DNA of 62,694 nt, the filler included. It is 4 parts of 4 records of this genome, joined end to end, with 100 filler letters (N's around TTAATTAATTAA, not from the genome) between each part and the next. Parts side by side here need not be neighbours in the genome. Positions count along the whole stretch, not along the records: positions 22,650 to 48,483 come from SRR20825006_1697; 3 more parts are not named here. One strand, written 5' to 3'. The notes beneath the pieces are model-generated. The model was given only the letters and a program-made list of their open reading frames with translations. It was not told the DNA's origin and did not search any database. Of this stretch, positions 22,550-46,230 are shown piece by piece (the first letter of the stretch is position 1; every line of letters starts with the position of its first letter). A program made the translations under genes and the position numbers.

Positions 22550-22649
22550 NNNNNNNNNNNNNNNNNNNNNNNNNNNNNNNNNNNNNNNNNNNNTTAATTA
22601 ATTAANNNNNNNNNNNNNNNNNNNNNNNNNNNNNNNNNNNNNNNNNNNN
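22550..22649. other. Artificial contig linker
   Basis: N run + TTAATTAATTAA + N run, 100 nt. Confidence 0.99.
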
Positions 22650-22905: not shown

Positions 22906-23188
22906 AAGTTCCGGTACATAAATTTTGCCAACCAGAGCCTGTAACGAAATAGAAAAAACAATCTTGATCAGTATCGTACACTAAAAGTCCATCAGCAGGA
23001 CCAGCAATAGCCGTTCTTTGAGCTGAAGTCATTCTAGGAACTAGAACTCCTTTATCACTTGCTTGAAGTTCAAGCACTGCACTTGGATCAGGTGTGGTTG
23101 TTCCTATACCAACATTATTTTGACCTATAGCTCCTGATGACAATAATGAGAATAGGATGGCGAATTGAATTCTTCTTAGTAGTTTCAT
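22650..23188 (-). CDS. Secreted collagen-like protein, truncated by the gap
   Basis: Signal peptide, [14 protein letters not shown]...[11 protein letters not shown] domain, then continuous Gly-X-Y triplets. Confidence 0.88.
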
Positions 23189-23196
23189 TAGTTTAG

Positions 23197-28932: not shown

Positions 28933-29847
28933 TTCAATCAAATTAGGACGATAATTAATCTGTTGACGGTTGAAAGAAAGAACCTGAACAGGAAAAGATG
29001 GTTTTGGATCCAATGCTTTCGAAAGAATATGAAAAGATGTCGTGTTCTCAAATTCATGGATCACTATTTCCCTTACACCCATTTTTCTTGCCAATTTCTT
29101 CAATCCAGCAAGGACTTTTTTCGCGTTCTCCTTACTCAATCCGTTGATCGCACCAACTTGCAAGATACTCGTAAAACGCAACCAAAGTTGACATCCTTCA
29201 ATGGAGACAATTCTATTTCCCAATCTGTTTTTGTATGTAATAAACTCCTTCGAAAAAGGAATAATTAATGCATTTTCAGAAGACACAGGATTTTCCATCG
29301 AATCGATTACCTGCACTGATTTTAATGCGTTCGCAATCACTCTTCTTTTAACTCCATTCAGTAGCGAAAATTTATTCATCAGTTTCATCCAAGGCAATCC
29401 TTTTTGATGAATATGAAAACGCATCATACGTGAATTATCTTGCCAGCCTTTTCCTTCTGAAACGATATGGGTAATCTCGCTGTGAAAAACAACTTGAACT
29501 GAAATATTCAATTCTTCTAAGAGCGATTTATTCTTAGCCAATAATTGACCTAAGATTCCTTTCTTCTGAAAATTCGGATGTGTGTAGTAATCGCAGTTTT
29601 GTGCGACTAGAAACTTTTTACCGTTTTCTTCGGCGAGCATGGGGAGAACTCCCGAAAAGCCAACCGCCAAATCCTTTACATAAGCAATGTGACACACAAA
29701 AGCCAATCCGCATTTTTCATTTGTATCGTACTTATTGATCAAATAATTCAGTGAAACCTTTCTTCCAAAGGCAACTTGAATTAGCTTTTGCACATCTTTT
29801 AATCGATCTTTTGTGAGGCGCTCAATGCGAACTTCGTCCATATCCAT
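28915..29847 (-). CDS. GNAT-family acyltransferase
   Basis: AQNCDYYTHPNFQKKGI (acyl-CoA binding motif A); overlaps the deacetylase gene. Confidence 0.75.
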   Translation of the reverse strand: MDMDEVRIERLTKDRLKDVQKLIQVAFGRKVSLNYLINKYDTNEKCGLAFVCHIAYVKDLAVGFSGVLPMLAEENGKKFLVAQNCDYYTHPNFQKKGILGQLLAKNKSLLEELNISVQVVFHSEITHIVSEGKGWQDNSRMMRFHIHQKGLPWMKLMNKFSLLNGVKRRVIANALKSVQVIDSMENPVSSENALIIPFSKEFITYKNRLGNRIVSIEGCQLWLRFTSILQVGAINGLSKENAKKVLAGLKKLARKMGVREIVIHEFENTTSFHILSKALDPKPSFPVQVLSFNRQQINYRPNLIELDAFL

Positions 29848-30793
29848 AGTGTCCCCTTGCTAAAAAGTACAGTAGTTCTGAAACTGTGAGGTGAGGGTTT
29901 ATTACAAATCTAGCAATTAAATCATCTGAATGAATTCCCTTAGAATCCACAATAATTTGATGCTTTACTCCAAGTGAACTCAACGCAGAAATAGTCTCTT
30001 CGGAGTACTTTCCATTTGGGTAACAGAACCAAGAAGAATCTCCACCAAGGCGAATTACTTTTTCAACTGAATTAATGACTTCCTGTTTCATCTCCTTCTC
30101 AGTTAAAGAAGTTAAAACGAGGTGATTTTCCCCGTGAGCAACTAGCTGAATTAAAGGTTCCTCACACAATTTCGCTAACTCCTCTTCCGTGAGTAATTTC
30201 CAAAAGGGTGTTAACTCTTTATGCTCACTTAATTTGCCAAAACACGGACGAAACTGCTCATAAAACTCCGTAAGTTGACTCGTTGTAGCCGAAAGCATTC
30301 GTTGTTTTAAACGTGCGCCATCGAGCTTCAATTTCCATTCTTGATTAAATAAGTGAACCGTCTCTTCGGGAAACAATTTGCAACTTAGATCCAATAAATC
30401 ACTCCACAAAACTGGCTCTTCAGCTGAACAAATACAAAAGGTTGCTGGCATGTTGTACTTCTTCAAGATGGGCAGTGCGTGAGTGAAATTGTTCTGAAGT
30501 CCATCATCGAAGGTCAATGCAATATTAAACCTGTCTTCCCGAAGGTTAATTCCAGATTGAAGATCTTTCAAAGAGATCACATTGAAGTGCGCGGAAAAAT
30601 AATTCAACTGTTCTTCGAATGTTTTTGTGGAAATGAACCGACTATTGAAACGGAGCTCGTCTACATCTACAACACCGTGGTAATTGAGCACACACATTCC
30701 TCCTTTTTTGAAGGTTGGTTGAAGCCCAAACCTTGCAAGAAACTGAAATTTCAATTTTAGAAAACGGTAGGAAAGTTTCTTTGCAAATAACAT
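29822..30793 (-). CDS. Polysaccharide deacetylase (CE4, IcaB/PgaB-like)
   Basis: VLNYHGV, LTFDDG, AHGENH, FCYPNG. Confidence 0.88.
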   Translation of the reverse strand: MLFAKKLSYRFLKLKFQFLARFGLQPTFKKGGMCVLNYHGVVDVDELRFNSRFISTKTFEEQLNYFSAHFNVISLKDLQSGINLREDRFNIALTFDDGLQNNFTHALPILKKYNMPATFCICSAEEPVLWSDLLDLSCKLFPEETVHLFNQEWKLKLDGARLKQRMLSATTSQLTEFYEQFRPCFGKLSEHKELTPFWKLLTEEELAKLCEEPLIQLVAHGENHLVLTSLTEKEMKQEVINSVEKVIRLGGDSSWFCYPNGKYSEETISALSSLGVKHQIIVDSKGIHSDDLIARFVINPHLTVSELLYFLARGHYGYGRSSH

Positions 30794-30800: not shown

Positions 30801-31781
30801 CTACTTTAGGTCTTCTAATTTTGATCGAACAAACTCAAACAGTTGTTTTTGACCGTATTCCGTCAAATGTGGATCATTCGGATAGTACAATTTCTTCCGA
30901 TGCGCATCCAATCGAAATTGAGTTAGAGGAGAAATTACCTTGACGTTTTTCAAACGAGCTAAATCACTTTTCAACTGGTCATAAAACTTAAACTTCCCAA
31001 CACACCTCTGAATTGGGAGAATTGCGCCAAGGGACACCATATTTTTTCGATATTCATTCGTGACTTGAGCCGCATGTGGCAACACGAGAATATATACAGG
31101 AATTCTAACTTCTTCGAGTAACTCTTCTAGATCACCTCTCATTTCTTCATAGGTACTCACCTGATTCCCTTCAATCATTATGGCATCATTAAGTGAATGT
31201 GCATCTGCTTTAAAATACCGCGCTTCACGTCGATTGTAGGTAGAAAGACTAAATTCACTTTCAGCTTTTCCTTTTACTGAAGCGTTTGATGCACCCAATC
31301 CGCCCAATTTATAATTAAGGTATTGCAAGCTCATCAAATTATCTCCTACTGCCGAGTAGCAGTTTCTAAAGAATGAGAGTTCGGACCAATTGCGCGAATG
31401 ATGATAATCTTGAAAGTCATTTCCAACGTATAATTGAATAATTATGGCGTTTGGACGAAACTCCTCCACTTTATCTTCAAAAAAGAGCCTCATTTGTTTC
31501 AATGAAATTCCGACAACTCCTGAATTAATCGTTGTAAACTGAGCGATCGAATCCTGCATAACGGCAGCGTAACTCTCATGATTTGCCGTGAAAGAATCTC
31601 CAAAAACGAGCACTTTCTTTTTGGAAGTAGAAAGTTCTTCTGGAGTATTCAACGATTTAAGCTCTGAGGAATAAAAATCGATCCAATTGAAACGATACAC
31701 CATTTCAAATAACAGAAGTGCTACTAAAATGACAAAACTCGTTTTCAATAAAAACTTCCCGATTTTCTTTAGATTTTTCAT
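30801..31781 (-). CDS. SGNH/GDSL hydrolase or acyltransferase, membrane-anchored
   Basis: VFGDSFT, NSGV.G, YVGND and DPH blocks; N-terminal TM. Confidence 0.82.
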   Translation of the reverse strand: MKNLKKIGKFLLKTSFVILVALLLFEMVYRFNWIDFYSSELKSLNTPEELSTSKKKVLVFGDSFTANHESYAAVMQDSIAQFTTINSGVVGISLKQMRLFFEDKVEEFRPNAIIIQLYVGNDFQDYHHSRNWSELSFFRNCYSAVGDNLMSLQYLNYKLGGLGASNASVKGKAESEFSLSTYNRREARYFKADAHSLNDAIMIEGNQVSTYEEMRGDLEELLEEVRIPVYILVLPHAAQVTNEYRKNMVSLGAILPIQRCVGKFKFYDQLKSDLARLKNVKVISPLTQFRLDAHRKKLYYPNDPHLTEYGQKQLFEFVRSKLEDLK

Positions 31782-33208
31782 TTCTTACTCAATTTCAAAT
31801 CGTACACCACCAGAATTCCGATACTTCCATAAAGCAATACACCCATTTTATCAATATCACTGAATGTATTGAACAATCCGTGCGCATAGAACGTAATAAG
31901 TCCAAGTAAAGCGGAAATAACGATCAATCGCTCTTCGGTTTCTAACGGTGCATAAATGAGCTTTAATCCAACATGGAGAACATAAAAGAGCAGAAGGATT
32001 AGTAAGACAAAGCCAACTATTCCCGTTTCCGAAAGCGCCGAAAGGTATTCAGAGTGAGCATTTCCTCGATCTCCAAGGTGCGTGCTGATCCGCGTCATAA
32101 ACTCAGGCGTCTGATAACGATCATAAATAAACTGATAGGTTCCTGGACCAAAGCCTGTGATTGGCTCGTCTTCAAACATTCGATATGCACACACCCATCG
32201 ATTAATTCGCTCCAAATTTGACTGATCATTCTGCAAGTTGGATACTGAACTAATGTGCGTAGCAATGTCGTCTCCGTACTTTGTCTCGTTCTCTTGCAAA
32301 GAATCGTAGATGGATTCAAAATTTAAAAGCACAGTTGCAACAACAACGGTTAAACCGACCATTATGTGCATTATCTTGACGCGTATTTTCGTCAACATTA
32401 TAAATCCTCCTGCGACAATTAGACTGATCCAAGAAGCACGAGAATAAGATAGAATTATCGCGACTAGAAAAATAGTCGAGAGTAGCCAAAACCATGTTCT
32501 TCCTGTTTCCTTTGTTTTAGTCATTTGTACAGAGAAAATCACTAAAAACGGAAAGACAAACGCCAAACAAGCTCCATAAACTGTATGATCAGAATAAAAC
32601 GGCGCACAAATATCAAAAGCAGTGTTGTGACCAAATCCACGTTGAGCATGTACCTGAATTGAGTGGAAAATAGGATAAAGTGCTCCAAGTGCGTAAAACA
32701 GAAAGAGTCGTTTTTGTTTTTTTGCAGAATTCAATTGGTTTGAAAAGATGAAAAAGTACACCGAAACAAAAAGTACTTTCATCATTAGTCGCTTCAAAGA
32801 AACGTCCATCATTTCACTTTGAATCGCGGAAATCGCAGACCAACTTAAATCCAACAAAAGCAAAATGGAAATGGGATGGGAAAATAGTTTTCGATTAAAA
32901 GACAATCCTGACAAGAGTTTAATTCCGAAGACAATCAGCAAGATTCCCGTCAGCAATTCCGTTGGAATAGACATTCGCAAAGACAAGAATGGAAGCGTTG
33001 CGTTCAACGATAAGGGAGCCAAACCAATGATCAACCAAACTGCGTTATCTATTTTTTTAAGAAAAAGTGGTAAAATGATTGCTCCAAGAAGGCAATAATT
33101 GGCAATGACAATGAACTCATTTTGCTCGTTCAGAAGAATAACGGAACTGACGATCAGCACCAGAAGAGAAACGAGTAATAGTCGACCGTTATTTTTTAGA
33201 AAAGCCAT
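31778..33208 (-). CDS. O-antigen ligase/polymerase (Wzy_C family)
   Basis: About 12 TM helices, LSYSRASW, SNLERINRW, PITGFGPG, AHSEYL..LSETG. Confidence 0.88.
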   Translation of the reverse strand: MAFLKNNGRLLLVSLLVLIVSSVILLNEQNEFIVIANYCLLGAIILPLFLKKIDNAVWLIIGLAPLSLNATLPFLSLRMSIPTELLTGILLIVFGIKLLSGLSFNRKLFSHPISILLLLDLSWSAISAIQSEMMDVSLKRLMMKVLFVSVYFFIFSNQLNSAKKQKRLFLFYALGALYPIFHSIQVHAQRGFGHNTAFDICAPFYSDHTVYGACLAFVFPFLVIFSVQMTKTKETGRTWFWLLSTIFLVAIILSYSRASWISLIVAGGFIMLTKIRVKIMHIMVGLTVVVATVLLNFESIYDSLQENETKYGDDIATHISSVSNLQNDQSNLERINRWVCAYRMFEDEPITGFGPGTYQFIYDRYQTPEFMTRISTHLGDRGNAHSEYLSALSETGIVGFVLLILLLFYVLHVGLKLIYAPLETEERLIVISALLGLITFYAHGLFNTFSDIDKMGVLLYGSIGILVVYDLKLSKK

Positions 33209-33218: not shown

Positions 33219-34202
33219 TTATTGAATGCGTTTCTTTAGCGATTTCCATTGGCTACTTAAGATGAAAAATGCTAATGAAGTCAACAAACCAAGAAAACCG
33301 CCGATTAAAAGGTTCGTACTTAACGATGGTGACACTTTCTTTCGATCTACCTCAGCTTCAGATATTTTGTAAACATTTGGAAATGGAAGTTCGATGGCAT
33401 CTAATGTTGTTCTTTGCTCATTTTTGAGTGTATTCAAAATCCCCAATTCTCTATAGTATTCCTCAATTTTACTTTCGAGGAGAAAACCCGGATGATTCTG
33501 TAATTTCTCTTTAATTAAAACATTCCCTTCTACAAAAATTCCGTCATCTTCGCCTTGTTCAAGTTGTTTTAGTCGACGTTCAGCCAAAACACGTGCTCCA
33601 GGTTTCTCTTCCAAAAACTGAATCTCGGTTAACAAGCTATCGACCAACGCCGTTTGGATAGGAATTTTCCGCTCGTATTCTTTAGCCAATCGAATAAGGT
33701 TATCCTGAAACAAGTCAGCTCGTAAAGAATCTATTTTATTCATCAAAGCATTCACAATATCCGCTGCCAATTGTGGATCTTTCATTTTGGCTTCAATCGC
33801 CACTGACAAGTAACGCGTGCGTGTAAAATTGATGTCCTCTGAGTAATTTCTAGACAACTCAAAATGCCAACCAGCAGAATTTGTGTCTAATTCATAGTAA
33901 TTGATCAAATCAAATTGCTCGATAATTGTATTGCGCATTTTCCTTGATTCGAAGAGTTGAATGAGTCTATCCGCTTGTACTTCAAATCCAAAATCTGGAT
34001 TTTCTGCAATATTTTTTATAGAATTTGAACTTGTAGGATACACGACACCAAAGGCGATGTATTTTTTCGGGATGAAATAAGTCATCACTCCCGCTCCAAT
34101 AACAAACAACAAGGCAACTATCAAGATCTTAAATCGATTTTTGAAAACGATTTGAATGAGATTTTGGTTCACAGATTCCTCTTCCACAAGTTTTTTCCCC
34201 AA
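33219..34202 (-). CDS. Wzz-like chain-length determinant
   Basis: N- and C-terminal TM, PKKY, DPQLAADIVN, coiled coil, KVSP; the real start may be GTG at 34187, because TATATTTG overlaps the TTG. Confidence 0.8.
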   Translation of the reverse strand: MGKKLVEEESVNQNLIQIVFKNRFKILIVALLFVIGAGVMTYFIPKKYIAFGVVYPTSSNSIKNIAENPDFGFEVQADRLIQLFESRKMRNTIIEQFDLINYYELDTNSAGWHFELSRNYSEDINFTRTRYLSVAIEAKMKDPQLAADIVNALMNKIDSLRADLFQDNLIRLAKEYERKIPIQTALVDSLLTEIQFLEEKPGARVLAERRLKQLEQGEDDGIFVEGNVLIKEKLQNHPGFLLESKIEEYYRELGILNTLKNEQRTTLDAIELPFPNVYKISEAEVDRKKVSPSLSTNLLIGGFLGLLTSLAFFILSSQWKSLKKRIQ

Positions 34203-34218: not shown

Positions 34219-35256
34219 CTATTCGATCCCCCATAAATTCAGATAGTGCAGAGAAGTATTGGATATGGTAAAAGGCACTTCAGGTTTTCGCGTTGAATTA
34301 AGCGATAATTGTTTTTTTAATGCTGTTTCGTAATTCCCATCGGATACTAAACTCCAGTTTTCTGAAGTGAAATCTTCCGCTATTCCAACGCTCTTCGAAA
34401 CAATTCCCATACCGCACATAAGCGCTTCTAAAAAAACATATCCCAAACTTTCAGAATTACTCGGATGGAAGAGCACTTTAGCTTGGTTCATTTCAATCAA
34501 AACTTCCTCTCGATCAATGATTCCCTTGAAATCAATAAGCGCATTTTTCTCCTTTGCATATTGTTCCAATTCTTCTCTTTGCGGTCCGTCTCCAATCAGC
34601 TTCACCACTAACGGGGATTCTTTCTGCAATCGAGCCACAGTATCAATGAATTGTTTGTAATTTTTTACTTCGATCAATGATCCAACTCCCAAAATGTCTG
34701 TTTTTCTCTCAGCTTCTTTGAACATCACCTGAGTGATCCCAAAAGGAATCACATGTTTTACAGTTAATTTGAGCTGATCTTGAATTCGATTCTTCTGTTC
34801 GGTACTTAGTGCAATAAGTTGATCGGTCGCCCCCACAAAGCGTTGATATTTCGAGGCTGTTTCTGCTTCTTGTCCCATTAAAGTAATGAAGTGTGGCTTG
34901 TCATTCCTTTTCGACCAGCGCCTTCCGACCAACGAAGCGTCCGAAAGCCAAAAAGAGTGAACAACATCGATGGGATGAATACGATTCAATTCATTTAAAA
35001 ACGAGATTGCTTTTCGATAGAACTTCAGTTTTCGCCATCTTCGCGCATTGTCTCCTCCGAGCGAGACGACATTCACTCCATTCCACGTATATTTTTTTGG
35101 TGCATAAGGATAATGGATCGCCAGAATGGAAATTTCTACCGCGTTAGATTTCTGAAGTTCCAACACTAATTGTTGCAATGGAGGTGCACATAAAAAATCA
35201 TTTTCATCTTTCGCAAATCCGGGAACAATAAAAACGATGTGCTTGGTTGATCTCAT
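34219..35256 (-). CDS. Glycosyltransferase family 4
   Basis: VGSL..VKN, IGDGP.R, ESLGYVFLEALMCG (EX7E). Confidence 0.9.
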   Translation of the reverse strand: MRSTKHIVFIVPGFAKDENDFLCAPPLQQLVLELQKSNAVEISILAIHYPYAPKKYTWNGVNVVSLGGDNARRWRKLKFYRKAISFLNELNRIHPIDVVHSFWLSDASLVGRRWSKRNDKPHFITLMGQEAETASKYQRFVGATDQLIALSTEQKNRIQDQLKLTVKHVIPFGITQVMFKEAERKTDILGVGSLIEVKNYKQFIDTVARLQKESPLVVKLIGDGPQREELEQYAKEKNALIDFKGIIDREEVLIEMNQAKVLFHPSNSESLGYVFLEALMCGMGIVSKSVGIAEDFTSENWSLVSDGNYETALKKQLSLNSTRKPEVPFTISNTSLHYLNLWGIE

Positions 35257-35391: not shown

Positions 35392-36144
35392 TTACCAGAC
35401 CATTCTTTCGCAGATAATTCGAGTTGTCGGGGATGTTAATACCAGTCTATCGTTTTGAATTTCTATAGAGTATGCTCCTTCAAAGACATTCAATTTAGTT
35501 GTATCTCCTAGTTGATCTTGTGAATGAATGTAAATTCCATTTTTGTATTCATTCCATGATTTCATTTCTAACACATTTAGGTACGTTGAAATACTCACAT
35601 TTCCATCGCCCGAAAAGCGTAACATTTCAGAGCAATTATTGACTTGAACAGATAGAAATGAATGATCGGGATCAAGAAATTTATTCTTATAGCTGACCTC
35701 TTCCACACACCAATTATTTCCTACCAGTTGATCAGAAATTGTTGGAATATCCCTAAATGCAAAAGGCAAAATAATCAACAAGAGGAAAAATCCAGTTACG
35801 ACTAAAAATCGTACCTCAAGACGCAGATTCTTTAGTCCAGGTACTTTTTGTGCAAGAGTATCAATCCAGTTCACGAACCTATTCGGAGTCTCATCCTCTT
35901 GATTCACATGTCCCCCTCTATCTAATACTTCTAGCGCTTGTTCCTTTTGAGATTCTCTTACTTGAATTCGAATCCCTCCAATTGCGTTAGAATAGAATGG
36001 CACTGCTTCTACAGTAAGTTCATCCAAAATTTGAACTTCAATTTCCTCCAACTCCAACTCCGCTCTCAACAGATAAGCATCCATCAAGAGCTCCATTCGA
36101 TGCACAGTTACCCAATTGTCAACGCCCTCTACATTCTTTTCCAT
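35392..36144 (-). CDS. DUF2007-domain membrane protein
   Basis: AYLLRAELE.E.I...ILDE.......YSNAIGGIRIQV; one TM. Confidence 0.75.
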   Translation of the reverse strand: MEKNVEGVDNWVTVHRMELLMDAYLLRAELELEEIEVQILDELTVEAVPFYSNAIGGIRIQVRESQKEQALEVLDRGGHVNQEDETPNRFVNWIDTLAQKVPGLKNLRLEVRFLVVTGFFLLLIILPFAFRDIPTISDQLVGNNWCVEEVSYKNKFLDPDHSFLSVQVNNCSEMLRFSGDGNVSISTYLNVLEMKSWNEYKNGIYIHSQDQLGDTTKLNVFEGAYSIEIQNDRLVLTSPTTRIICERMVW

Positions 36145-36224: not shown

Positions 36225-36950
36225 TTAACTCAGCATTAACCATGGAAATGGTGAAATTTTCTTCCTCAATAACTTTTCGATTATAGACTTCTTGTTGGTT
36301 GCTACGACTGTTAATTCAGGGAAATCATTCAAGGTATGATGATTATAGAACTTTGCCATTCGAGGAAAGCCTAGTTTTTCAAAATAATTCACCGTTCTTT
36401 CTTTCGCCTTTGCAGCAGCTTCCGCATCTGAATAGATTGGACTATCCAAGATGTGAATTTCTCCTCCAGGCTTGATCAATTTGCGCAATACATTAATGAG
36501 TGCCATCGGATCGGGAAAATATTGAACGCTTCCATTTAAAACAACAATATCAGCCGTTGCACTTCTTTCCAAATTGAATACATCAGCATACGCGAACGTT
36601 AATCTCTTATGAAAAAAAACTCTGTTCGCTTGATTTAATTCTGATTCGTTCACATCTAGTCCCAGTACATTTGCCGTTGAATTTCGTGCTAAAAAATGAG
36701 AGAACCATCCATTCCCACAACCGATTTCAATGATTTCCTTAGGTTTCTTTCGAGCCAAATAGGATACAAATTTGTTTGCCGTTGCTCGTCTTTTTTTCCA
36801 AATATCAATGTGAATATCGGATTGAGAAACATTTGGCAGCTTCTTCACCTTTTCATCCGAACAAATCCACCCTTCTTTTTCTCGCACTTCGAGGTAAACA
36901 TCTTCAAAATCAGCCAGTTTAGGCGTTAAAAAGTGAATTTCTTTATTCAT
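36225..36950 (-). CDS. Class I SAM-dependent methyltransferase
   Basis: IEIGCGNGW, GLDVN, DIVVL..SVQY, IKPGG. Confidence 0.88.
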   Translation of the reverse strand: MNKEIHFLTPKLADFEDVYLEVREKEGWICSDEKVKKLPNVSQSDIHIDIWKKRRATANKFVSYLARKKPKEIIEIGCGNGWFSHFLARNSTANVLGLDVNESELNQANRVFFHKRLTFAYADVFNLERSATADIVVLNGSVQYFPDPMALINVLRKLIKPGGEIHILDSPIYSDAEAAAKAKERTVNYFEKLGFPRMAKFYNHHTLNDFPELTVVATNKKSIIEKLLRKKISPFPWLMLS

Positions 36951-37118: not shown

Positions 37119-37790
37119 TTATTCGCAGCCATTCAACAATTTTGGAAGTCGCTCTTGTTCCACCCAAGCGTCTACTCTCCATTGTCCGAAAATCTCTCTT
37201 CGAATTCCATCGGGACCAACAACAATCGTTTTGATTGTCAAAGTTGTTGGAAGATTGAACGACCGAAACAACGAATCTGCATTACTCAAGTTACTCCCCT
37301 TTCCAGAAATAGTATCTCCGTCGTCAAAAATACTCCATTCAGTAATCGAGAATGATGCGTTTAAAGGAACTTCTGCCGGGTATTTAGCGAATAAATTCGT
37401 GGAATGTAAAGATGCTTTGCTACTGCTTTTGGAACCGCCCCAATACAAAGTCGGATCCGGTAAATTACTTACTCTGTACTGAACTTGTCTTATGGTGTCC
37501 CAATTACCATCATTGTCCACTACTAGTGTAAGTATCGTGGTTCTATTTTGATCCGGAACAACCGTGAAAAAATCACTATTTTCTGACTTAGAAACTGAAC
37601 AATTTGAACCAAGTAGAATGACTCTTCCATCTCCGTTGTTGGTTACTGCTGGAATAACCCTATTTGGATAACCACGATAAAGAACATTCATTTCAGGTAA
37701 TTCAATTGCACCGACTGGTTCTTGGGCAAATAGCCCGTTTTGAAGAAAAAGTGAAATACCACACACTAGAATACAAAAGCTTACTTTCAT
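37119..37790 (-). CDS. Secreted GldM C-terminal-like protein
   Basis: EMNVLYRGYPN and YRV..LPDP resemble GldM periplasmic domains; signal peptide. Confidence 0.6.
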   Translation of the reverse strand: MKVSFCILVCGISLFLQNGLFAQEPVGAIELPEMNVLYRGYPNRVIPAVTNNGDGRVILLGSNCSVSKSENSDFFTVVPDQNRTTILTLVVDNDGNWDTIRQVQYRVSNLPDPTLYWGGSKSSSKASLHSTNLFAKYPAEVPLNASFSITEWSIFDDGDTISGKGSNLSNADSLFRSFNLPTTLTIKTIVVGPDGIRREIFGQWRVDAWVEQERLPKLLNGCE

Positions 37791-37881: not shown

Positions 37882-38439
37882 TCATTCATTTGCTCTTCCA
37901 TAAATTACACGCTTCGAAAAAGTGGATTGAATGAACCCCCACCTAACGCCCGATTTCATCCCATTTCCAGATGAAGAGAGTATTTCTGGCTCAATCCCTT
38001 TAAAGAGCAAGTGTTCACTGTTTCCTATTTTTTGAACAATACTATCTGGAAGTTCAGCAATTGTTGACGAACCAACATTTCTCTCTAGAAAAGTCGTTCT
38101 TTCCTCAGATTCGGATCCATCAACACAGCCAGATGCATAGTAAGTTGTATCTATATTCCAATAGTGAATGAAATCAAGCTTTAAAGTATCGCCATCATCA
38201 AATTCAATATTTAAAAACTCATAAACTATTGTGGCAGGATTATCAATGAATTCAATTTCTAAGGTTGTCGCTCCATGAATTTTGTATGTAGCATGAGCTT
38301 CCACTTCTATATGTTCTTCCGTACTTTCGGAATATATAACTCGATAATTCCCTGCCAAATTTGAGGTAAAAAATATGTCTTGAGCAGTTGCTTTAAAGCT
38401 GAAAACGAGAATAAGGCATAGAAGAATTCTTTTGGGCAT
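37882..38439 (-). CDS. Hypothetical secreted protein
   Basis: Signal peptide ATA-Q; acidic 185-aa ORF. Confidence 0.55.
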   Translation of the reverse strand: MPKRILLCLILVFSFKATAQDIFFTSNLAGNYRVIYSESTEEHIEVEAHATYKIHGATTLEIEFIDNPATIVYEFLNIEFDDGDTLKLDFIHYWNIDTTYYASGCVDGSESEERTTFLERNVGSSTIAELPDSIVQKIGNSEHLLFKGIEPEILSSSGNGMKSGVRWGFIQSTFSKRVIYGRANE

Positions 38440-38507: not shown

Positions 38508-39887
38508 TCACTTCATAAACGCCATCGCCGTTCGAGAAAGGATCGCCTTTGTTTTTCCTTTTGCCCAAGGAAGAAATGATTTATTCTCCCAATGTTTATG
38601 TGCATTTACTGAATTCACTACGTAGCGAACTGCGTGTGTATAAAACTCACGTGAATAAGTGCGTTCAAAATCGATATCTCTGTCCGTTGATTCTTCCCAA
38701 TTTGGAAGTGGTTTCATTTTCGGTTTTACTTGTTCGTAGAGCGAAGTTCCAGCAATTGGGTATGCAACGGTGATTGTAAAATGATCTGGATTCGATGTTT
38801 TTAAGTGATGAACTGTTTCTTTGATATCGCTCATCGTTTCATTTGGATAACCGAGCATAATAAACGTTCCCGTTCCTATTCCTACTTCTCTTGCTTTGCG
38901 AATCTGATCGCGAACTACGTTAACGTCAACTCGACGATCCATTTCATCAATGATCTTTTGCGATCCACTTTCAGCTCCAATCCAAATTTTTGAACAGCCA
39001 ATTTCTTTCAACTGCGCCAAAATCTCATCTGTAAGTCTTTCTGCGCGAGTGATACATTCAAACGCTATTTTGATACTTCGTTTGGTAAATTCCTCGTGCA
39101 ACTCTGAAATCCATTTGTGACTCACGGTAAAAACGTCATCTACAAACCATAAAGAATCAGGTTGATAACGCTCAATCAAGTATTCTACCTCATCGGCAAC
39201 CAATTTAGCAGACCGACGACGATAACTTTGTCCATAAACCGCTGTACTGCACCAATTACACGTATAAGGACATCCTCTTTGGGTGCTCAACGAGATCGTA
39301 CTGCTCCCGTGTCTGTTTTTCCATGCAGATAAATACAGATCGAGTTCAATTGCTTCCCGGTCTGGCATTGGAAGATCGTCTACTTGCTTGATTTTTACAC
39401 GCGGTGGATTTACGACAATTTCTCCTTCTTTCCAATGGACAAGTCCAGTTACTTCTTCAACTGAGTTGGAATCCTTAATTGCTTTTGACAACTCCAACAT
39501 GGTTTGTTCACCTTCGCCGATAATTAAAAAGTCCGCTCCGGCATTCATGTAATTTTCCTTGTTGTAGGTTACATCTGGTCCTCCCAAAACGATTTTGGTG
39601 TCTGACAGTCCTTGTTCGGAACGGATAAAACGAATGATTCTAATCAAGTTGATTTTCGTCATCAGGTTTGCATACAAAGCAACCAAGGCGGGCTTATTCT
39701 CCACCAAAGATTTCTTTAACTCTTCAAAAGATGAAAATGTGGAATCGAACACCATCGTTTTCACCTCAGATTGCTTCAGAAATCCAGAAATATACAGAAG
39801 TCCCAATGGAGGATAAGGTCGCATTATCTCCTGCTCCTTTTCGTCCTCTGCCAAGAAATATCCGTGTGTTAGAAAAACATCCATCAT
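38508..39887 (-). CDS. Cobalamin-binding radical SAM enzyme
   Basis: PYPPLGLLYI, LGGP, GEGE (B12-binding domain); RGCPYTCNWC; FVDD.F; IGAESGS. Confidence 0.93.
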   Translation of the reverse strand: MMDVFLTHGYFLAEDEKEQEIMRPYPPLGLLYISGFLKQSEVKTMVFDSTFSSFEELKKSLVENKPALVALYANLMTKINLIRIIRFIRSEQGLSDTKIVLGGPDVTYNKENYMNAGADFLIIGEGEQTMLELSKAIKDSNSVEEVTGLVHWKEGEIVVNPPRVKIKQVDDLPMPDREAIELDLYLSAWKNRHGSSTISLSTQRGCPYTCNWCSTAVYGQSYRRRSAKLVADEVEYLIERYQPDSLWFVDDVFTVSHKWISELHEEFTKRSIKIAFECITRAERLTDEILAQLKEIGCSKIWIGAESGSQKIIDEMDRRVDVNVVRDQIRKAREVGIGTGTFIMLGYPNETMSDIKETVHHLKTSNPDHFTITVAYPIAGTSLYEQVKPKMKPLPNWEESTDRDIDFERTYSREFYTHAVRYVVNSVNAHKHWENKSFLPWAKGKTKAILSRTAMAFMK

Positions 39888-40654
39888 CGTTGAAGGTAGA
39901 TAAAATAATGATCTGAGCGAGCTGCAGCCTTTTTACTGTCTTCTTTTCTGCGTTCCATTCGTTTTAATCGTTCGAATAATTTAGGTCGTTTTTTCACAAA
40001 AGACTCTAGGTAAGATGGTGGAATAAAACTTCCTACGGGATGAATACCCCTTGTTTTCATTGACGAATGTTCAGAGATCCACGTTGGCGAATAGTACCAG
40101 GTTTTTACTTTCACGCCGTTTACATTTGCATCAACGCCTTTTTTATTTTTTCTTCGGAATGCTTCTGAGATTTTACCTTTTGCTAGAAAATAAATTGATT
40201 CCCAGCGACACGCAGATGGCATGATCACGAGCATTGTCTTCCCTCCTATTTTTAGTTTCTTTTTAATCGTTTCTAACGCACTTTCGAGTTCAATTTCGTC
40301 GAGACAATTTAATCCTCCGAAATTCGAGAATATAAGATCAAACTGCTCGTCTTCGAAGGCGGCATCTAGGTGTTTAATATCGAGCACTTCCGTCTCAATC
40401 TCCGAATTTCGTTGTTGTGTGATCGAAATCATTTCAGGAGAGATATCGGTTGCCGTTACTTTTGCTCCTTGCTGTGCCATCCATGATGCGTCTGCGCCAG
40501 TTCCACAGTTAATTTCCAAGACGTTTAATCCCGAAATGCCATCGAGATATCGATTCATAAAACGATACACCGATTCACGTTGAGCGGTTCCGATTAACGA
40601 ATGAGTAAAATCATCGTCGTAGGTAGAAGCAATATGATCAAAGTCCTGAATCAA
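39884..40654 (-). CDS. Class I SAM-dependent methyltransferase
   Basis: LEINCGTG.DA, TDIS..M, FDLIFSNFGGLNC; 4-nt overlaps with both neighbours. Confidence 0.9.
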   Translation of the reverse strand: MIQDFDHIASTYDDDFTHSLIGTAQRESVYRFMNRYLDGISGLNVLEINCGTGADASWMAQQGAKVTATDISPEMISITQQRNSEIETEVLDIKHLDAAFEDEQFDLIFSNFGGLNCLDEIELESALETIKKKLKIGGKTMLVIMPSACRWESIYFLAKGKISEAFRRKNKKGVDANVNGVKVKTWYYSPTWISEHSSMKTRGIHPVGSFIPPSYLESFVKKRPKLFERLKRMERRKEDSKKAAARSDHYFIYLQR

Positions 40655-42105
40655 GCCGAAGTCTGAACGTTTTCAAGTCGCTTCATTTTTGCGCCATAAT
40701 AACTGATAAGCGGCGCGTAATACCAACTTTTCAAAAGTGCTTTCATTCCTGTTGATGAGAAAACGGAATGCTTTTTAACCAAGTCTTTTGCTTGAATTCT
40801 TCGGAAGAACTTGTGGACAAAACGGTGAACTGTTTTGTAATATTCTTGATTGAACGTATTCTTAAACATCAAAGCGAGTTCATCCGAATCCGTCCAATTG
40901 GATTTTGTTCCCAATTGATCTTTCACAACGTCGTAAAATTTCGTTCCTGGCAGCGGATAAGAAACCGAAACGCCTATATCGTCGGGTTTGTTATTCTCGA
41001 GCATTCGGAAAGTTGATTCTACGTCTTGTTTTGTTTCTCCGAGGTATCCAAACTGCAGAAAATAGGCCACTCGAACTCCAAATTTCTGCAACTGTTCGGT
41101 AGATGTTTTAATTTGTTCGGTTGTAATTCCTTTGTCCATGGCGTCCAGAATCCCTTGCGAACCGCTCTCTGCTCCTAGCCACACTTCTTCCAAACCGGAT
41201 TGAGCCAGTGCATCGATTGTGTCATCTTGTAAAAGCAAATCAGCGCGACTTTGGATTTTATAGCCGATTTTCAGCTTGTTTTCCGTCAATAGATCTCTAA
41301 ATTCTTGTACCCATCCTGGTTTTAGACCAAAAATGTCATCGCACATCCAGAATTTGTTCACATCAAAATTCTCTTTGATCCAAGTTATTTCATCCACCAC
41401 TTTCTGCGGCGATCTAGAATTATATCGATTTCCATAAATGGGCTTCGCGCACCAGTTGCATTTGTATGGACAACCACGCGTTGTTGCTAAATTGAGCGTA
41501 AATTCCTTTCCGCCAGACTCCCAAATTTGCTTGTAAGACTTAGTGTCTATCAAATCCCATGCTGCCATTGGGAGTTCATCCAACTCCTTCAAAACAGAGC
41601 GCCTGCCGGTATTCTTTATTTCGGTGCCTTGCTTAAAGCACATGCCTTTTACTTCGTCAATCTCTTCGTTTGCTTCGAGCTTGTTCACCAATTCCAACAA
41701 GGTCATTTCGCCTTCACCGAGAAGTACAAAGTCTGCGCCTTCTGACAAATAATCCGCAAAATGATCCGTTGAATCGGAACTAGAAACGATCACTGTACAA
41801 CCAGCCTCTTTTCCGAATTTTATCATTCTGAAAGCCGCTTCCCTCATGTTTGTGAGGCACATTTTTGTCAGATAGTTAAATCCGTCATCGTACAACACCA
41901 AATATTTAGGCTGATCTTTTTTTAAGATCGTCACGATTTCATCAGGACTGTTTCTCAATCCAGTATCGAACAATCCAACTTGATAACCGTTCTCCCGCAT
42001 AAATGCAGCAGCGGTGATTGTTCCAAGCGGCGGATAAGGTGTTTTTCCTTTCCATTGCTTAGGATCAAGTTGATAATAATATGCGTGACTAAATAAGATG
42101 TTCAA
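40651..42105 (-). CDS. Cobalamin-binding radical SAM enzyme
   Basis: PYPPLGT, GEGE, RGCPYKCNWC, DDIFG, LGAESGS, YPLPGT. Confidence 0.93.
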   Translation of the reverse strand: MNILFSHAYYYQLDPKQWKGKTPYPPLGTITAAAFMRENGYQVGLFDTGLRNSPDEIVTILKKDQPKYLVLYDDGFNYLTKMCLTNMREAAFRMIKFGKEAGCTVIVSSSDSTDHFADYLSEGADFVLLGEGEMTLLELVNKLEANEEIDEVKGMCFKQGTEIKNTGRRSVLKELDELPMAAWDLIDTKSYKQIWESGGKEFTLNLATTRGCPYKCNWCAKPIYGNRYNSRSPQKVVDEITWIKENFDVNKFWMCDDIFGLKPGWVQEFRDLLTENKLKIGYKIQSRADLLLQDDTIDALAQSGLEEVWLGAESGSQGILDAMDKGITTEQIKTSTEQLQKFGVRVAYFLQFGYLGETKQDVESTFRMLENNKPDDIGVSVSYPLPGTKFYDVVKDQLGTKSNWTDSDELALMFKNTFNQEYYKTVHRFVHKFFRRIQAKDLVKKHSVFSSTGMKALLKSWYYAPLISYYGAKMKRLENVQTSA

Positions 42106-42988
42106 AGCGTTTCAATTTTTCGTTGTATTGATCGAGTACCTTTTTCTGAAAATTACTTGGATGATGCTTGGATACTCGTCGGTTTGTTTTCATCGCCAAT
42201 TCAAATTCTTCGTCTTTAAAATGCCCGAATTTATTCTCCCATCTTTTCAGGGTTATCTTCATGAAGCGTGTATCAAGTAATTCTCCGAGTTGACCATTGA
42301 GTGTTCGCTCCATCAATTTCCCAAACCATCTTTTTTTCAAGCTGGAAGTTGAAGTCAAATCTCTCTCTACTGCAAGTGGATAGTAGCTTGAAGTCCATTT
42401 ATTCTCTTCCTTAAACTGAACATAGATCTCAGGATTGACCATTGGTAAAATGGTAATAATCTCCGTAGCGGTGAATAGATTCTCTTCTGAAATTTTCAAA
42501 TGATCTTCATCTACGAAGTAGTTTACACAAAAGTATTTCCTAGAATTAAGAAGGAAAACCTTTTTGTAGAAGACAAGAAATGTTCTTGCAATCCATAATC
42601 TATTCGGTTGAGTAACGATAAAGAAATCAATGTCACCGTCCTGATGTAGCACACCTTTCGACAAAGATCCAGAGATCATAACGGCGCGAACAAAGGGAAA
42701 TCTTGCTATTAACTGCGCTTTCCGATGAGCGATGTTCATTTTTCGTTTCGCTTCTTCATTCGACTTAACTCTTCTTTCTGCGATTGCCGGGTCGGACTGT
42801 AAACTATAGAACTCATTGTGCTGAAAGACCACTCCTGATTGAGTTAGCTCCCTTAATTCTACTTCAATATTCGTTGAGTCAACATGAGGGATTCGCGAAA
42901 ACTCTGCAATCTCGCCAAGTTTTAGTGGGTGCGAGAATACATCATAATAGGACAAAACTTGAAGAATACTTCCTATATTTGATTTCAA
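42089..42988 (-). CDS. Pol-beta superfamily nucleotidyltransferase-like protein with N-terminal wHTH-like region
   Basis: PFVRAVMISGSLSKG.....GDIDFFIV (GS...DxD); N-terminal YYDVFSHPL...EI...EL..L...G.V. Confidence 0.75.
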   Translation of the reverse strand: MKSNIGSILQVLSYYDVFSHPLKLGEIAEFSRIPHVDSTNIEVELRELTQSGVVFQHNEFYSLQSDPAIAERRVKSNEEAKRKMNIAHRKAQLIARFPFVRAVMISGSLSKGVLHQDGDIDFFIVTQPNRLWIARTFLVFYKKVFLLNSRKYFCVNYFVDEDHLKISEENLFTATEIITILPMVNPEIYVQFKEENKWTSSYYPLAVERDLTSTSSLKKRWFGKLMERTLNGQLGELLDTRFMKITLKRWENKFGHFKDEEFELAMKTNRRVSKHHPSNFQKKVLDQYNEKLKRFEHLI

Positions 42989-43026
42989 CGTAATAGTTTA
43001 AGTTACAATTTGTAAAGATATAGTTA

Positions 43027-44115
43027 TTGACCTATTCAACAAAAATCAGACGGCTGAATGCCGATTATTTTCCTAAAAGAATTTTTCAAGGTCCAGATTG
43101 GATTGTGATGGGCGTGAACAATGTTTGCAATCTTCACTGCAAGATGTGCGACGTTGGAACGAAAAATCTGGAAAGTAACTTCGCGGTAAATTTAATCGGT
43201 ACTCAACCTTTGAATATGCCGATGGAGTTATTCAAACGAATCATTGATCAAGCCGCTGAGTATTATCCGAAGACAAAAATTGGCTACGCATTTACGGAAC
43301 CGTTGGTGTATCCACACTTGGAAGAATCGTTGAAATACGCGCAATCAAAAGGACTTTACACTTCTGTGACAACGAACGCTTTAACACTTAAGCAGAAAGC
43401 AAAAATGCTCGTTGAGAGCGGTCTGAATGATCTTTTCATCTCACTCGACGGACCAGAAGAAATTCACAATGAAATTCGAGGGCACACAAAATCCTTTCAG
43501 AAGGCTGTGGAGGGAATTCAAGAAATCCTGAGTTATCCAAATCCACCGAAGATTTCTATTTTTTGTTGTATTACGGAATGGAATATCGGTCACCTGGAGC
43601 GATTTCTAGACTTTTTTAAAGATTTTCCGCTGGAGCACATTGGGTTTATGCACACCAATTTTACTCCTCAGGAAATTGCCGACAAGCACAATCTGATTTA
43701 CGGAGAAACCTATCGCGCTACCGATTCCAATGTCGATGAAGTTGACATGACCAATATGGATTTGGATCTTTTATGGAACGAAATTGAGCGCATTGAGGCT
43801 ACTGAGAGTTCATTTGATGTCAGTTTTTCTCCAAAGGTGAAATCTAGAGATGAATTAGATACTTTTTATTTCCGCCCAGAACAATTGATGGGAAAAAAAT
43901 GCATGGATGTTTTTTCAAATGTTATGATTAAATCTGACGGGAGTTGTATCCCTGCGCACGGAAGATGTTATCAAGTTGACGCTGGAAATATCTACACGAA
44001 CAATTTGAAGGAAATTTGGAACTCACCCAATTTCGCTGGTTTTCGAAAAACACTCAATGATGCTGGAGGACTGCTTCCTGCTTGCAGTCGCTGCTGCAGT
44101 GGTTTTGGTTCATAA
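43027..44115 (+). CDS. Radical SAM enzyme with twitch/SPASM domain
   Basis: CNLHCKMC, ISLDG....HNEIRG; C-terminal C...IKSDG..IP...C....GNI...L.EIWNS...ACSRCC. Confidence 0.9.
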   Translation: MTYSTKIRRLNADYFPKRIFQGPDWIVMGVNNVCNLHCKMCDVGTKNLESNFAVNLIGTQPLNMPMELFKRIIDQAAEYYPKTKIGYAFTEPLVYPHLEESLKYAQSKGLYTSVTTNALTLKQKAKMLVESGLNDLFISLDGPEEIHNEIRGHTKSFQKAVEGIQEILSYPNPPKISIFCCITEWNIGHLERFLDFFKDFPLEHIGFMHTNFTPQEIADKHNLIYGETYRATDSNVDEVDMTNMDLDLLWNEIERIEATESSFDVSFSPKVKSRDELDTFYFRPEQLMGKKCMDVFSNVMIKSDGSCIPAHGRCYQVDAGNIYTNNLKEIWNSPNFAGFRKTLNDAGGLLPACSRCCSGFGS

Positions 44116-44703: not shown

Positions 44704-46230
44704 ATGTCTCAACCCAACAACGTACTTCTTTTCAATCCACGTAGCGCCAAGATGAAGCATAGGATTCCAAATTCTATTCTACAAGTCGGCGCATCCATTC
44801 ATGGTAAGTATGAATACGTTTTTGTGGATGGAAATATGGAAACCGATCCTTGGGAAGTGATTGATGATTATCTTTCAAGCAATCAATTTGGTTATTTCGG
44901 CTGTACAGTGATGCCTGGCCCTCAACTTCGAGAAGCCATTCCCTTCGCTCGAAACATTCGTGAAAAGTACCCAAATGTGACTATTATTTGGGGAGGATAT
45001 TTTGCTTCAAATCAATATCAAGTTTGTCTAAATTCTGGTTTTGTTGATTACATCATCAACGGACCTGGAGATACTGCTTTTCCTGAGTTACTGGATTTTC
45101 TTGAAGGAAAAAGTGAAAAGGCATTGGATGAAATCCCCAATCTTATTTATTTTGATGACCAACGGAAGTTTTTAAAAACAAAGAAGGATAATCTACCCGA
45201 TTTAGATAAGCTTCCTAGTCTTCCTTACGAGCATTTCAACTCATTTTACCCGATAAAAAATTATTTAGGAAAAACGTTTTTAGGAAATAAGACGCTTTCT
45301 TATCATTCGAGCTTTGGATGTCCATTTACATGCTCGTTTTGCGCCGTTGTTCCCATTTACAATGCTCGTTGGAAAGGAGCTTCTGCCGAGAAAATCTATA
45401 GCGATATTACCTACTTACGTGAGAAATATGGAATGGATAGTGTTGAGTTTCACGACAACAATTTTTTCACCTCTCGCAAGCGCGTTGTAGAATTTGCCAA
45501 GTTGGTTAAAAACGATGGTATTACTTGGTGGGGAGAAGGAAGAATCGATACGATTGATAAATATTCCGATGAAGATCTTGTGTTAATGCGCGAAGCAGGT
45601 TGTAAGATGATCTTTCTTGGCGCAGAAACTGGAAACGATGAAATCCTTAAACAAATGGACAAGGGAGGAAATCAATCTGGGGATCAAATTAGAACGTTTG
45701 CTGCACGACTGCATCGCGTTGGGATTATTCCTGAGATGTCGTTTGTTTTGGGAATGCCTGCAGATACTGAGGCAGAAGTTACAAAGCAAATTGAATTTGA
45801 CATAAATTTCATCCGAGAGATTAAATCGATCAATCCAACGGCGGAAATCATAATCTACGTCTATAGTCCCGTTCCAACGGAAGGATCAGATCTCTACGAT
45901 CAAATTTCTGCGGCGGGATTCAAATTCCCAGAAACCTTGGAGGATTGGTTAGATCCTGTTTGGGAGAATTTCGATTTACGAAAAAACCCATTAACTCCTT
46001 GGCTGACGGCAAAAATGATTAGTAGAATAAAGAATTTCGAGACTGTTTTGAACGGATACTATCCAACTGCCACGGATTATCGTGTAAAAGGATTCAAAAA
46101 ATGGCTCTTACGAAGCACCTCATTCCCACGGTACAAACTTGGATTTTATTCCTTGCCCTACGACATCAAATTGATGCATAAAGTTTGGAAATATCGTCAA
46201 CCAGAAATTGAAGGATTCTACAAAGAGTAA
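44704..46230 (+). CDS. Cobalamin-binding radical SAM enzyme
   Basis: RIPNSIL, WGGYF, GPG(D), FGCPFTCSFC, HDNNFF, LGAETG, YSPVP. Confidence 0.92.
   Translation: MSQPNNVLLFNPRSAKMKHRIPNSILQVGASIHGKYEYVFVDGNMETDPWEVIDDYLSSNQFGYFGCTVMPGPQLREAIPFARNIREKYPNVTIIWGGYFASNQYQVCLNSGFVDYIINGPGDTAFPELLDFLEGKSEKALDEIPNLIYFDDQRKFLKTKKDNLPDLDKLPSLPYEHFNSFYPIKNYLGKTFLGNKTLSYHSSFGCPFTCSFCAVVPIYNARWKGASAEKIYSDITYLREKYGMDSVEFHDNNFFTSRKRVVEFAKLVKNDGITWWGEGRIDTIDKYSDEDLVLMREAGCKMIFLGAETGNDEILKQMDKGGNQSGDQIRTFAARLHRVGIIPEMSFVLGMPADTEAEVTKQIEFDINFIREIKSINPTAEIIIYVYSPVPTEGSDLYDQISAAGFKFPETLEDWLDPVWENFDLRKNPLTPWLTAKMISRIKNFETVLNGYYPTATDYRVKGFKKWLLRSTSFPRYKLGFYSLPYDIKLMHKVWKYRQPEIEGFYKE

Follow-up and report, generated by a model that had tools for sequence, protein, structure and literature searches.

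Class B radical S-adenosylmethionine (SAM) enzymes have known roles in pathways to antibiotics, cofactors, and lipids and in the modification of proteins. To my knowledge, fosfomycin is the only known precedent of a nucleotidyltransferase feeding such an enzyme, and the fold of the cytidylyltransferase domain of its Fom1 protein differs from that of the Pol-beta nucleotidyltransferases. ANT(4') and LinB put adenosine monophosphate (AMP) on a sugar hydroxyl, and HpnI, HpnK, and HpnJ, which are a glycosyltransferase, a deacetylase, and a B12-domain radical SAM enzyme, respectively, act on a lipid-linked amino sugar. In the fosfomycin pathway, as PMC8158854 describes it, Fom1 makes 2-hydroxyethylphosphonate-CMP (2-HEP-CMP), the B12 radical SAM enzyme Fom3 methylates this product, and FomD removes the cytidine monophosphate (CMP). 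GenK, GenD1/GntE, and MoeK5 are named as Csp3 methyltransferases in a 2026 review of B12-dependent radical SAM enzymes (PMC12931638). Here I describe a gene cassette found in a window of 62,694 nt, which is the whole stretch of DNA analysed and consists of four joined parts; all positions count along this window. The four core genes encode a protein with a winged helix-turn-helix (wHTH) and a Pol-beta nucleotidyltransferase-like domain ("NTase"), two B12-domain radical SAM enzymes ("rSAM_A" and "rSAM_B"), and a class I SAM-dependent methyltransferase ("MT").

It is very probable that NTase and rSAM_A work together in a glycan or glycolipid tailoring unit. On balance, I favour the more specific reading that the four genes form the centre of a conserved but so far uncharacterised cassette which tailors a lipid-carrier-linked sugar of a Wzx/Wzy-type surface glycan. 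The role in glycan tailoring is suggested by the gene context and by natural gene fusions. No literature on the cassette was found in a search outside which subscription journals and supplements lay, and neither a role of class B radical SAM enzymes in ordinary surface glycans nor a dedicated NTase partner is described in searchable papers. In the 2026 review (PMC12931638), words beginning with "glycosyl" or "fusion" are absent.

Four Overlapping Genes

On the minus strand, NTase (42089-42988, 299 aa) is the first gene of the cassette and is followed by rSAM_A (40651-42105, 484 aa), MT (39884-40654, 256 aa), and rSAM_B (38508-39887, 459 aa). The listing of open reading frames (ORFs) agrees with the preliminary description of the locus in that the four ORFs overlap successively by 17, 4, and 4 nt. 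The two 4-nt overlaps are spelled TTGA and ATGA. The start codon is ATG in rSAM_B and TTG in the other three genes; the TTG starts are presumptive and agree with the N-termini of homologues. The tight arrangement of these four genes, which the preliminary description took as the core, is real, but the system is wider than this core: a third B12-domain radical SAM enzyme ("rSAM_C"), a second class I methyltransferase ("MT2"), and a GT4 glycosyltransferase also belong to it.

MT matches Pfam Methyltransf_25 with 67 bits and lies downstream of rSAM_A in most loci. It falls below every NCBIfam equivalog cut-off, the best match being CpaM (64.7 bits against a cut-off of 180). This best sub-threshold match is a corrinoid-protein-associated methyltransferase. 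The match, together with an rSAM_A::MT fusion described below, raises the idea that MT might serve the cobalamin rather than the substrate.

Natural Fusions

Natural fusions are the strongest evidence for the system. NTase and rSAM_A are fused in a protein of 814 aa in the locus L081 and in one of 826 aa in a record named Tistrella mobilis by NCBI (P0126). There are four further proteins of 850-855 aa without a GT4 domain, one of which bears the JGI name ".../predicted nucleotidyltransferase". An rSAM_A::MT fusion of 727 aa lies directly downstream of NTase (L093, 2241-4424). NTase itself is fused to GT4 domains (GT4::NTase, 660-682 aa) and to Bac_transf, an initiating phosphoglycosyl transferase (533 aa). 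Thus, the fusions tie the unit to MT, to GT4, and to an initiating phosphoglycosyl transferase.

Most of the listed long relatives of rSAM_A carry a glycosyltransferase. There are 236 such relatives (E <= 1e-40), and 116 of the 120 listed have GT4 domains. The domain order is GT4, B12, and radical SAM, and the proteins share 44-51% identity with rSAM_A across 89-100% of its length. Where named, the organisms belong to Vicinamibacterales or Terriglobia. The surroundings of GT4::rSAM_A were examined in 80 metagenome loci. The gene order is the fusion, about 1.2 kb, MT, MT2, and rSAM_C. An NTase homologue (24-38% identity) is found about 3.4 kb upstream on the opposite strand in all 22 loci with enough upstream DNA. 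In one of the loci (L103), this upstream NTase adjoins genes for a Wzx-like Polysacc_synt protein and Wzy_C.

Since they are adjacent, co-occurring, and sometimes fused, NTase and rSAM_A form one functional unit.

Gene Order and Co-occurrence

A word-based search found 3663 NTase relatives of similar length, none of them informatively named. A profile search of 1.84 billion representatives put the family at 1326 clusters (50% identity) for E <= 1e-30 and at 4973 clusters for E <= 1e-10. To describe synteny, the best 80 of 548 confirmed genome loci were mapped by tblastn with the window proteins. It had been considered that NTase homologues might mostly lack radical SAM or glycosyltransferase neighbours. 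The opposite was found: of the 73 loci having at least 1.6 kb downstream, 60 have rSAM_A directly downstream of NTase and in the same orientation, and some NTase homologues are fused to radical SAM or glycosyltransferase domains. Of the 61 loci whose downstream DNA extends to 4.8 kb or more, 40 have rSAM_A, MT, and rSAM_B contiguous in this order, and 4 others have all three but spaced. The recurrent neighbours are MT2, glycosyltransferases of the GT4, GT2, GT87, and PMT_2 types, Wzy_C, an ABC transporter, and a lipoprotein with a CMWCH motif.

This lipoprotein has no Pfam match and carries CMWCH as a haem-binding motif; its gene comes right after rSAM_B in 12 of the 40 large core loci (e.g., L037, 14483-15610). 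In four loci of the Lewinella/Saprospiraceae type, a protein with a CotH-kinase-like part and a beta-helix is inserted between MT and rSAM_B (857 aa at 7786-10359 in L026, and 3 other loci).

Co-occurrence was scored in 401 genomes drawn evenly from the phylum of the L037 genome, which is titled Flavobacterium sp. CF136. The thresholds were chosen by the author: E <= 1e-20 for NTase, 1e-100 for rSAM_A and rSAM_B, and 1e-120 for rSAM_C. NTase was found in 47 of the 401 genomes, as a single copy in each. rSAM_A was found in 46 genomes, all of them within the 47, and both rSAM_B (15 genomes) and rSAM_C (22 genomes) were confined to those 46. The loci L087-L089 are examples without rSAM_B; they have NTase, rSAM_A, MT, MT2, GT4, and rSAM_C. 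NTase and rSAM_A are clearly a constant, obligate-like pair, while rSAM_B and rSAM_C are optional modules. The identities of NTase and rSAM_A correlate over 1770 pairs from 60 loci (r = 0.76), a value which carries no weight as it came without a control pair.

The Nucleotidyltransferase-like Protein

The preliminary description had pointed to a GS...DID motif of the Pol-beta type in the first gene. The motif, SGSLSKG...DGDIDFF in full (GS...DxD), holds up well: S106, G107, D119, and D121 are invariant in 25 stand-alone homologues and in 8 fusion proteins, and six further NTase residues are also invariant in the 8 aligned fusions. Pfam NTP_transf_2 matches residues 96-145 with 23 bits, barely above the cut-off of 21; at E <= 1, the profile is matched by 23 of the 25 family members, with 2.7e-7 as the best value.

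An AlphaFold2 model built with 25 homologues (predicted local distance difference test, pLDDT, 90.7) has a winged helix at residues 1-66, with Z scores of 8-9.4 to Fur, histone H5, and MarR-type domains, and residues 79-284 of this full model match ANT(4') at Z 8.8. When residues 68-299 were modelled alone (pLDDT 93.0) and compared with 48,161 chains, ANT(4') was again the best match (Z 8.3, root-mean-square deviation 3.3, 113 residues aligned, 20% identity), followed by LinB (6.5), DrrA (6.4), an archaeal MNT (6.2), and GlnE (5.6). Only 1 chain reached Z >= 8 and 13 reached Z >= 5. In Foldseek, MntA came first (E 1.5e-3, probability 1.00), and HalB, DrrA, LinB, KNTase, and AadA followed. The predicted structure thus has the Pol-beta fold that had been anticipated, together with a winged helix; motif, Pfam threshold, and modelled fold confirm the assignment jointly.

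Sequence searches reached less far. The MNT antitoxin is the top sequence neighbour of NTase, a profile search of PDB sequences did not find ANT or LinB at E <= 10, and ESM Atlas returned only the unnamed family of NTase itself.

The charges of the parts are opposite. All 25 members have an acidic winged helix, with net charges from -9 to -2 (median -5) and a charge of -3 on the third helix, so that binding to DNA is unlikely. The linker helix has +5 and the C-terminal part +7 net charge among the 25 members. This pattern fits an anionic ligand, for example a nucleoside triphosphate (NTP) or a pyrophosphate lipid.

The Radical SAM Enzymes

rSAM_A and rSAM_B match Pfam Radical_SAM with 68.5 and 76.7 bits, respectively. 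The B12-binding domain of rSAM_B scores 51.2 bits, above the Pfam cut-off of 32.1, and rSAM_A aligns to BchE over residues 23-458. By sequence, the enzymes carry an N-terminal B12-binding domain, and binding of cobalamin is predicted. The cluster-binding type motif CxxxCxxC is invariant in both, as C212xxxC216xxC219 in 30 orthologues of rSAM_A and as C206xxxC210xxC213 in 24 sequences of rSAM_B.

The two enzymes had been described as a diverged duplication. They are indeed paralogues, with 31% identity over 434 columns (E 9e-90), and the shared motifs named earlier (PYPPLG, RGCPYxCNWC, W(L/I)GAESGSQ, YP..GT..Y, and NW..S/D) all appear in the alignment; the claim needs the qualification that the split is old. 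The median identity is 58% among rSAM_A sequences, 55% among rSAM_B sequences, and 32% between the two groups. Judged from these identities, the duplication is ancient, and A and B would not be interchangeable. A heterodimer of the two had also been suggested. This idea is weakened because rSAM_B is missing from many cassettes which keep NTase, rSAM_A, and MT; since rSAM_B and rSAM_C are accessory, an obligate A/B heterodimer is unlikely.

rSAM_C (44704-46230, plus strand, 508 aa) is a divergently transcribed, accessory enzyme with 25-26% identity to rSAM_A and rSAM_B. It scores 52.3 bits for Radical_SAM and 31.9 bits for B12-binding in Pfam. Its orthologues (56-69% identity) are found near the core in other loci.

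Neither rSAM_A nor rSAM_B reaches any of the NCBIfam equivalog cut-offs (BchE, HpnJ, PhpK, HpnR, and MgmA-type). The best scores are those of BchE (162 and 155.6 bits against 481), while HpnJ gives 137-139 bits against 577.6 and PhpK 121-148 against 600. The best solved sequence relatives in PDB are 9ccb, AprD4, OxsB, TokK, and CysS (E 1e-8 to 1e-15). The best of them is the protein methylase behind 9ccb, and 9CCB occurs as a term in PMC11796369, the paper describing MgmA. Methylation is the commonest chemistry in the class, and a rearrangement or dehydration may also be possible.

Residues 73-87 of rSAM_A (about 41845-41889, minus strand), which lie inside the B12-like domain, form the motif DDGFNYLTKMCLTNM, which is invariant in 30 orthologues. 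The GT4::rSAM_A fusions retain it as EDNFNYLSKMCLLRM, and rSAM_B has no equivalent of it at that position.

Other Genes in the Window

A radical SAM/SPASM protein (43027-44115, plus strand, 362 aa; Radical_SAM 67.2 and SPASM 32.7 bits) is encoded next to NTase. Orthologues with 57-61% identity lie beside rSAM_C and NTase in L008, L010, L044, L051, and L068. This protein likely belongs to the system, though it is less constant. Only 38 nt (42989-43026) lie between the presumed TTG start of NTase (42988, minus strand) and that of the SPASM gene (43027, plus strand). So little room for two promoters suggests that one start or both may be wrongly placed, or that the promoters may be located within the adjacent genes. 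A promoter and terminator scan with a sigma-70 model was uninformative (37 sites in the window versus 49.5 in shuffles, and 7 versus 14.4, respectively). Rfam gave no match at the gathering score in the whole window, and a cobalamin riboswitch was not found by that search.

Beyond rSAM_B, all on the minus strand, lie MT2 (36225-36950, 241 aa; Methyltransf_31, 60 bits) and the GT4 glycosyltransferase (34219-35256, 345 aa; Glycos_transf_1, 71.4 bits). MT2 comes after rSAM_B or MT in many loci, and orthologues of this GT4 (32-39% identity) come after MT2 in other loci. Three ORFs (37882-38439, 37119-37790, and 35392-36144, minus strand), interspersed with the conserved cassette genes, have no or sub-cut-off Pfam matches and hence no clear family. 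They are probably lineage-specific insertions, because MT2 directly follows rSAM_B elsewhere. According to Pfam, the minus-strand genes continue with a Wzz-like protein (33219-34202), a Wzy_C/O-antigen-ligase-like protein (31778-33208), an SGNH protein (30801-31781), a polysaccharide deacetylase (29822-30793), and a GNAT protein (28915-29847). Wzz/Wzy pairs adjoin NTase in L002, L019, L022, and L023.

No gene for a precursor peptide, polyketide synthase (PKS), nonribosomal peptide synthetase (NRPS), phosphoenolpyruvate (PEP) mutase, or cytidine diphosphate (CDP)-alcohol synthesis was seen in the cassette of the window. A tblastn search of the window with the haem lipoprotein, GT87, PMT_2, MTS-type methyltransferase, ABC, and unk382 families found none at E <= 1e-3.

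A second group of envelope-sugar genes is located at 8649-19839. It holds genes for a UDP-GlcNAc 2-epimerase, two UDP-sugar dehydrogenases, a DegT-type aminotransferase, an epimerase/dehydratase, a hexapeptide acyltransferase, and a Kdo transferase; located between these genes, at 11415-13228, are an adenosine 5'-phosphosulfate (APS) kinase gene and a gene of the inositol-monophosphatase family. At 22598-24513 and 57292-59631 lie a collagen-triple-helix-repeat protein adjoining a CHU_C type IX sorting-domain protein, and a second CHU_C/PKD protein. These proteins indicate that the window comes from a Bacteroidota-type chromosome.

Proposed Function and Alternatives

In the proposed scheme, the modification would take place on the cytoplasmic side of the membrane, with the sugar attached to its polyprenyl-phosphate carrier and not yet exported by a Wzx/Wzy-type route. 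With an NTP as donor, NTase would attach a nucleotide to the lipid-linked sugar, either at a hydroxyl or at a phosphate; action on sugar hydroxyls is suggested because its nearest fold neighbours, ANT(4') and LinB, act in this way. The nucleotide would serve as a binding handle for rSAM_A. With a 5'-deoxyadenosyl radical, rSAM_A would generate a substrate radical, and methylcobalamin would then methylate an unactivated carbon, or a rearrangement would follow. MT would add an O- or N-methyl group, and rSAM_B, where present, may act in a further radical step on this sugar or on one next to it. That NTase nucleotidylates the substrate of the radical SAM enzymes, as had been proposed earlier, is plausible from the fold neighbours and from the precedent of Fom1 and Fom3, and I offer the nucleotide-handle step itself tentatively.

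Several observations weigh against this scheme. The cassette is known here from genes and predicted structures, and not from an activity, a product, or a substrate. The fold matches of NTase are modest, as the best Z is 8.3 and Foldseek gave no match at E <= 0.001, and its C-terminal 100 residues (200-299) are matched by virtually nothing. The B12-binding score of rSAM_A, 22.3 bits, is below the Pfam cut-off of 32.1. In 13 of the 73 loci, NTase lies away from any radical SAM gene; by title, these loci are mostly from Saprospiraceae/Chitinophagales, and NTase is flanked there by unrelated genes, such as those for outer-membrane barrels and M14 peptidases. In favour of the pairing, each of the five lone-NTase genomes tested carries an rSAM_A orthologue (55-58% identity) elsewhere. 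One genome of the co-occurrence sample (G164) is the only one with NTase and without rSAM_A at the threshold; its NTase homologue has 396 aa and lies beside an epimerase gene, with no radical SAM gene. The co-occurrence is uncorrected for shared ancestry, and 3-5 candidates were scored per genome. At least one glycan-assembly gene was found in 33 of the 40 core loci of at least 18 kb, a count made without a control. The GT4 of the window is only distantly like those in the fusions. No obvious conserved hydrolase that would remove the nucleotide was seen in the cassette, and the fosfomycin precedent covers the logic only, because the fold of Fom1 differs.

Among the other explanations, some keep the glycan context and change the role of NTase. 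NTase might AMPylate or otherwise modify a protein, either rSAM_A or a carrier, or it might be a non-catalytic subunit presenting the substrate; in both cases, the small molecule would never be nucleotidylated. Protein AMPylases, namely MntA (E 1.5e-3, probability 1.00) and DrrA, are indeed among the best Foldseek neighbours, the strict pairing and the fusion of NTase with rSAM_A would also fit a subunit, and a nucleotide-removing enzyme is not conserved nearby. I consider this explanation unlikely, as the GS and DxD residues are invariant in the 25 stand-alone members and all 8 fusions, which favours catalysis over a subunit role, and as the fusions to GT4 and phosphoglycosyl transferase fit a glycan substrate better than rSAM_A as the target. 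Some DxD enzymes of the NTase fold act as phospho-alcohol transferases in the decoration of teichoic acids and glycans. NTase could be such an enzyme of the LicD/FKRP type, transferring from a CDP-activated donor to the glycan a phosphate-linked group which the radical SAM enzymes and methyltransferases build or modify. The glycan context, the fusions to glycosyltransferase and phosphoglycosyl transferase, and the basic C-terminal domain would fit this. Pfam LicD, however, matches none of the 25 members at E <= 1, the fold neighbours listed all use NTPs, and a gene making a CDP-alcohol was not seen in the cassette of the window; I consider this role unlikely. The best 50 rows of the fold comparisons contain no FKRP or LicD structure, which by itself does not count against it.

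Other explanations concern the product or the membership of NTase. That the cassette acts on a lipid (the polyprenyl carrier, or the head group of a membrane lipid) or yields a small diffusible natural product, and does not act on a surface polysaccharide, is brought up by the best NCBIfam matches of the radical SAM enzymes, which include HpnJ, HpnR, a "ladder" lipid radical SAM enzyme, and phosphonate P-methyltransferases, all far below the cut-offs; moreover, the fusion with phosphoglycosyl transferase indicates only that polyprenyl phosphate is nearby. It is quite improbable, given that the GT4 fusion is the dominant long form of rSAM_A (116 of 120 listed), that Wzx-like, Wzy_C, Wzz, GT2, GT87, and PMT_2 neighbours occur, and that no precursor peptide, PKS/NRPS, or PEP mutase gene accompanies the cassette in the window. 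The winged-helix N-terminus, and the MNT antitoxin as the top neighbour in sequence and in Foldseek, might suggest a DNA-binding regulator of the operon, or an NTase of the MNT/AbiEii toxin-antitoxin or defence type which merely adjoins biosynthetic genes. This is highly improbable: the winged helix is acidic in 25 of 25 members (-9 to -2), the NTase module occurs inside enzyme fusions, and the gene, present once per genome, is inherited together with rSAM_A in 46 of the 47 genomes that have it. The neighbours are radical SAM, methyltransferase, and SPASM genes, and the absence of a HEPN or AbiEii-type partner noted in the preliminary description was borne out by the neighbouring genes and by PADLOC; an AbiEi partner is absent as well. 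PADLOC found no defence system in the window, its best NTase match being an unnamed candidate family (15.8 bits, E 0.0023).

The PADLOC matches of MT to mad2 (68.9 bits) and of the SPASM protein to pVip (48.3 bits) were rejected as generic domain matches. A ribosomally synthesized and post-translationally modified peptide (RiPP) as the product was also rejected, since a precursor gene was not seen and the natural fusion partners are glycan enzymes.

The tailoring of a lipid-linked surface sugar by NTase and its radical SAM partners would have several consequences. It is conceivable, though rather doubtful, that a transient NTase handle on the polyprenyl-linked sugar lets one to three B12 radical SAM enzymes C-methylate or rearrange it into branched or unprecedented surface sugars. 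If this is true, such sugars would occur in about 1 in 8 genomes sampled from the phylum and in soil bacteria source-named Acidobacteriota, and this would be the first B12-dependent step described in the assembly of cell-envelope polysaccharides. Many bacteria are thought to obtain B12 from others, and the chemistry of the cell surface would be tied to the supply of this vitamin. It would also predict new sugar structures and a new strategy of substrate recognition for radical SAM enzymes. The family is large, with 1326 clusters, presence in 47 of 401 genomes, and hundreds of GT4-fused forms in soil metagenomes, and the natural fusions are ready-made constructs for biochemistry.

Comparison with Known Systems

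NTase shares the Pol-beta core and the GS and DxD residues with the NTases of the MNT-HEPN and AbiEii systems, and MntA is its top Foldseek neighbour. It differs from them in its additional winged-helix and C-terminal domains, in its biosynthetic synteny, in its fusions to enzymes, and in having no HEPN or AbiEi partner. Among solved structures, ANT(4'), or kanamycin nucleotidyltransferase, and LinB come closest in fold to residues 68-299. There is no significant sequence match to these proteins; in contrast to them, NTase has an N-terminal winged helix and another C-terminal domain, and it is encoded in a biosynthetic operon and not as a resistance gene.

The radical SAM enzymes resemble GenK, GenD1/GntE, MoeK5, and AprD4, a set of sugar-modifying radical SAM enzymes with a B12 domain. 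For each of rSAM_A, rSAM_B, and rSAM_C, AprD4 (6fd2) ranks with the top solved structures by sequence, although the AprD4 score in NCBIfam is weak (55-72 bits against a cut-off of 500). Those enzymes belong to antibiotic pathways of actinomycetes and have no NTase partner. As in the Hpn system, the window has a glycosyltransferase (GT4), a polysaccharide deacetylase, and radical SAM enzymes that match HpnJ (137-139 bits). On the other hand, the HpnJ cut-off of 577.6 is not reached, there are no hopanoid genes, and the core here includes NTase and class I methyltransferases.

The fosfomycin pathway has a phosphonate substrate and not a lipid-linked sugar. Neither a FomD-like hydrolase nor a PEP mutase was seen here, and the radical SAM enzymes of the cassette score far below the curated cut-offs of the Fom3/PhpK type. 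The likeness lies in the logic. According to PMC8158854, the substrate first receives a nucleotide, its unactivated sp3 carbon is then methylated in a cobalamin-dependent radical SAM reaction, and the nucleotide is taken off afterwards. As in Fom1, Fom3, and FomD, an NTase is here genetically coupled to a class B radical SAM enzyme, being adjacent to it in 60 of 73 loci, co-occurring with it in 46 of 47 genomes, and fused to it in L081 and P0126.

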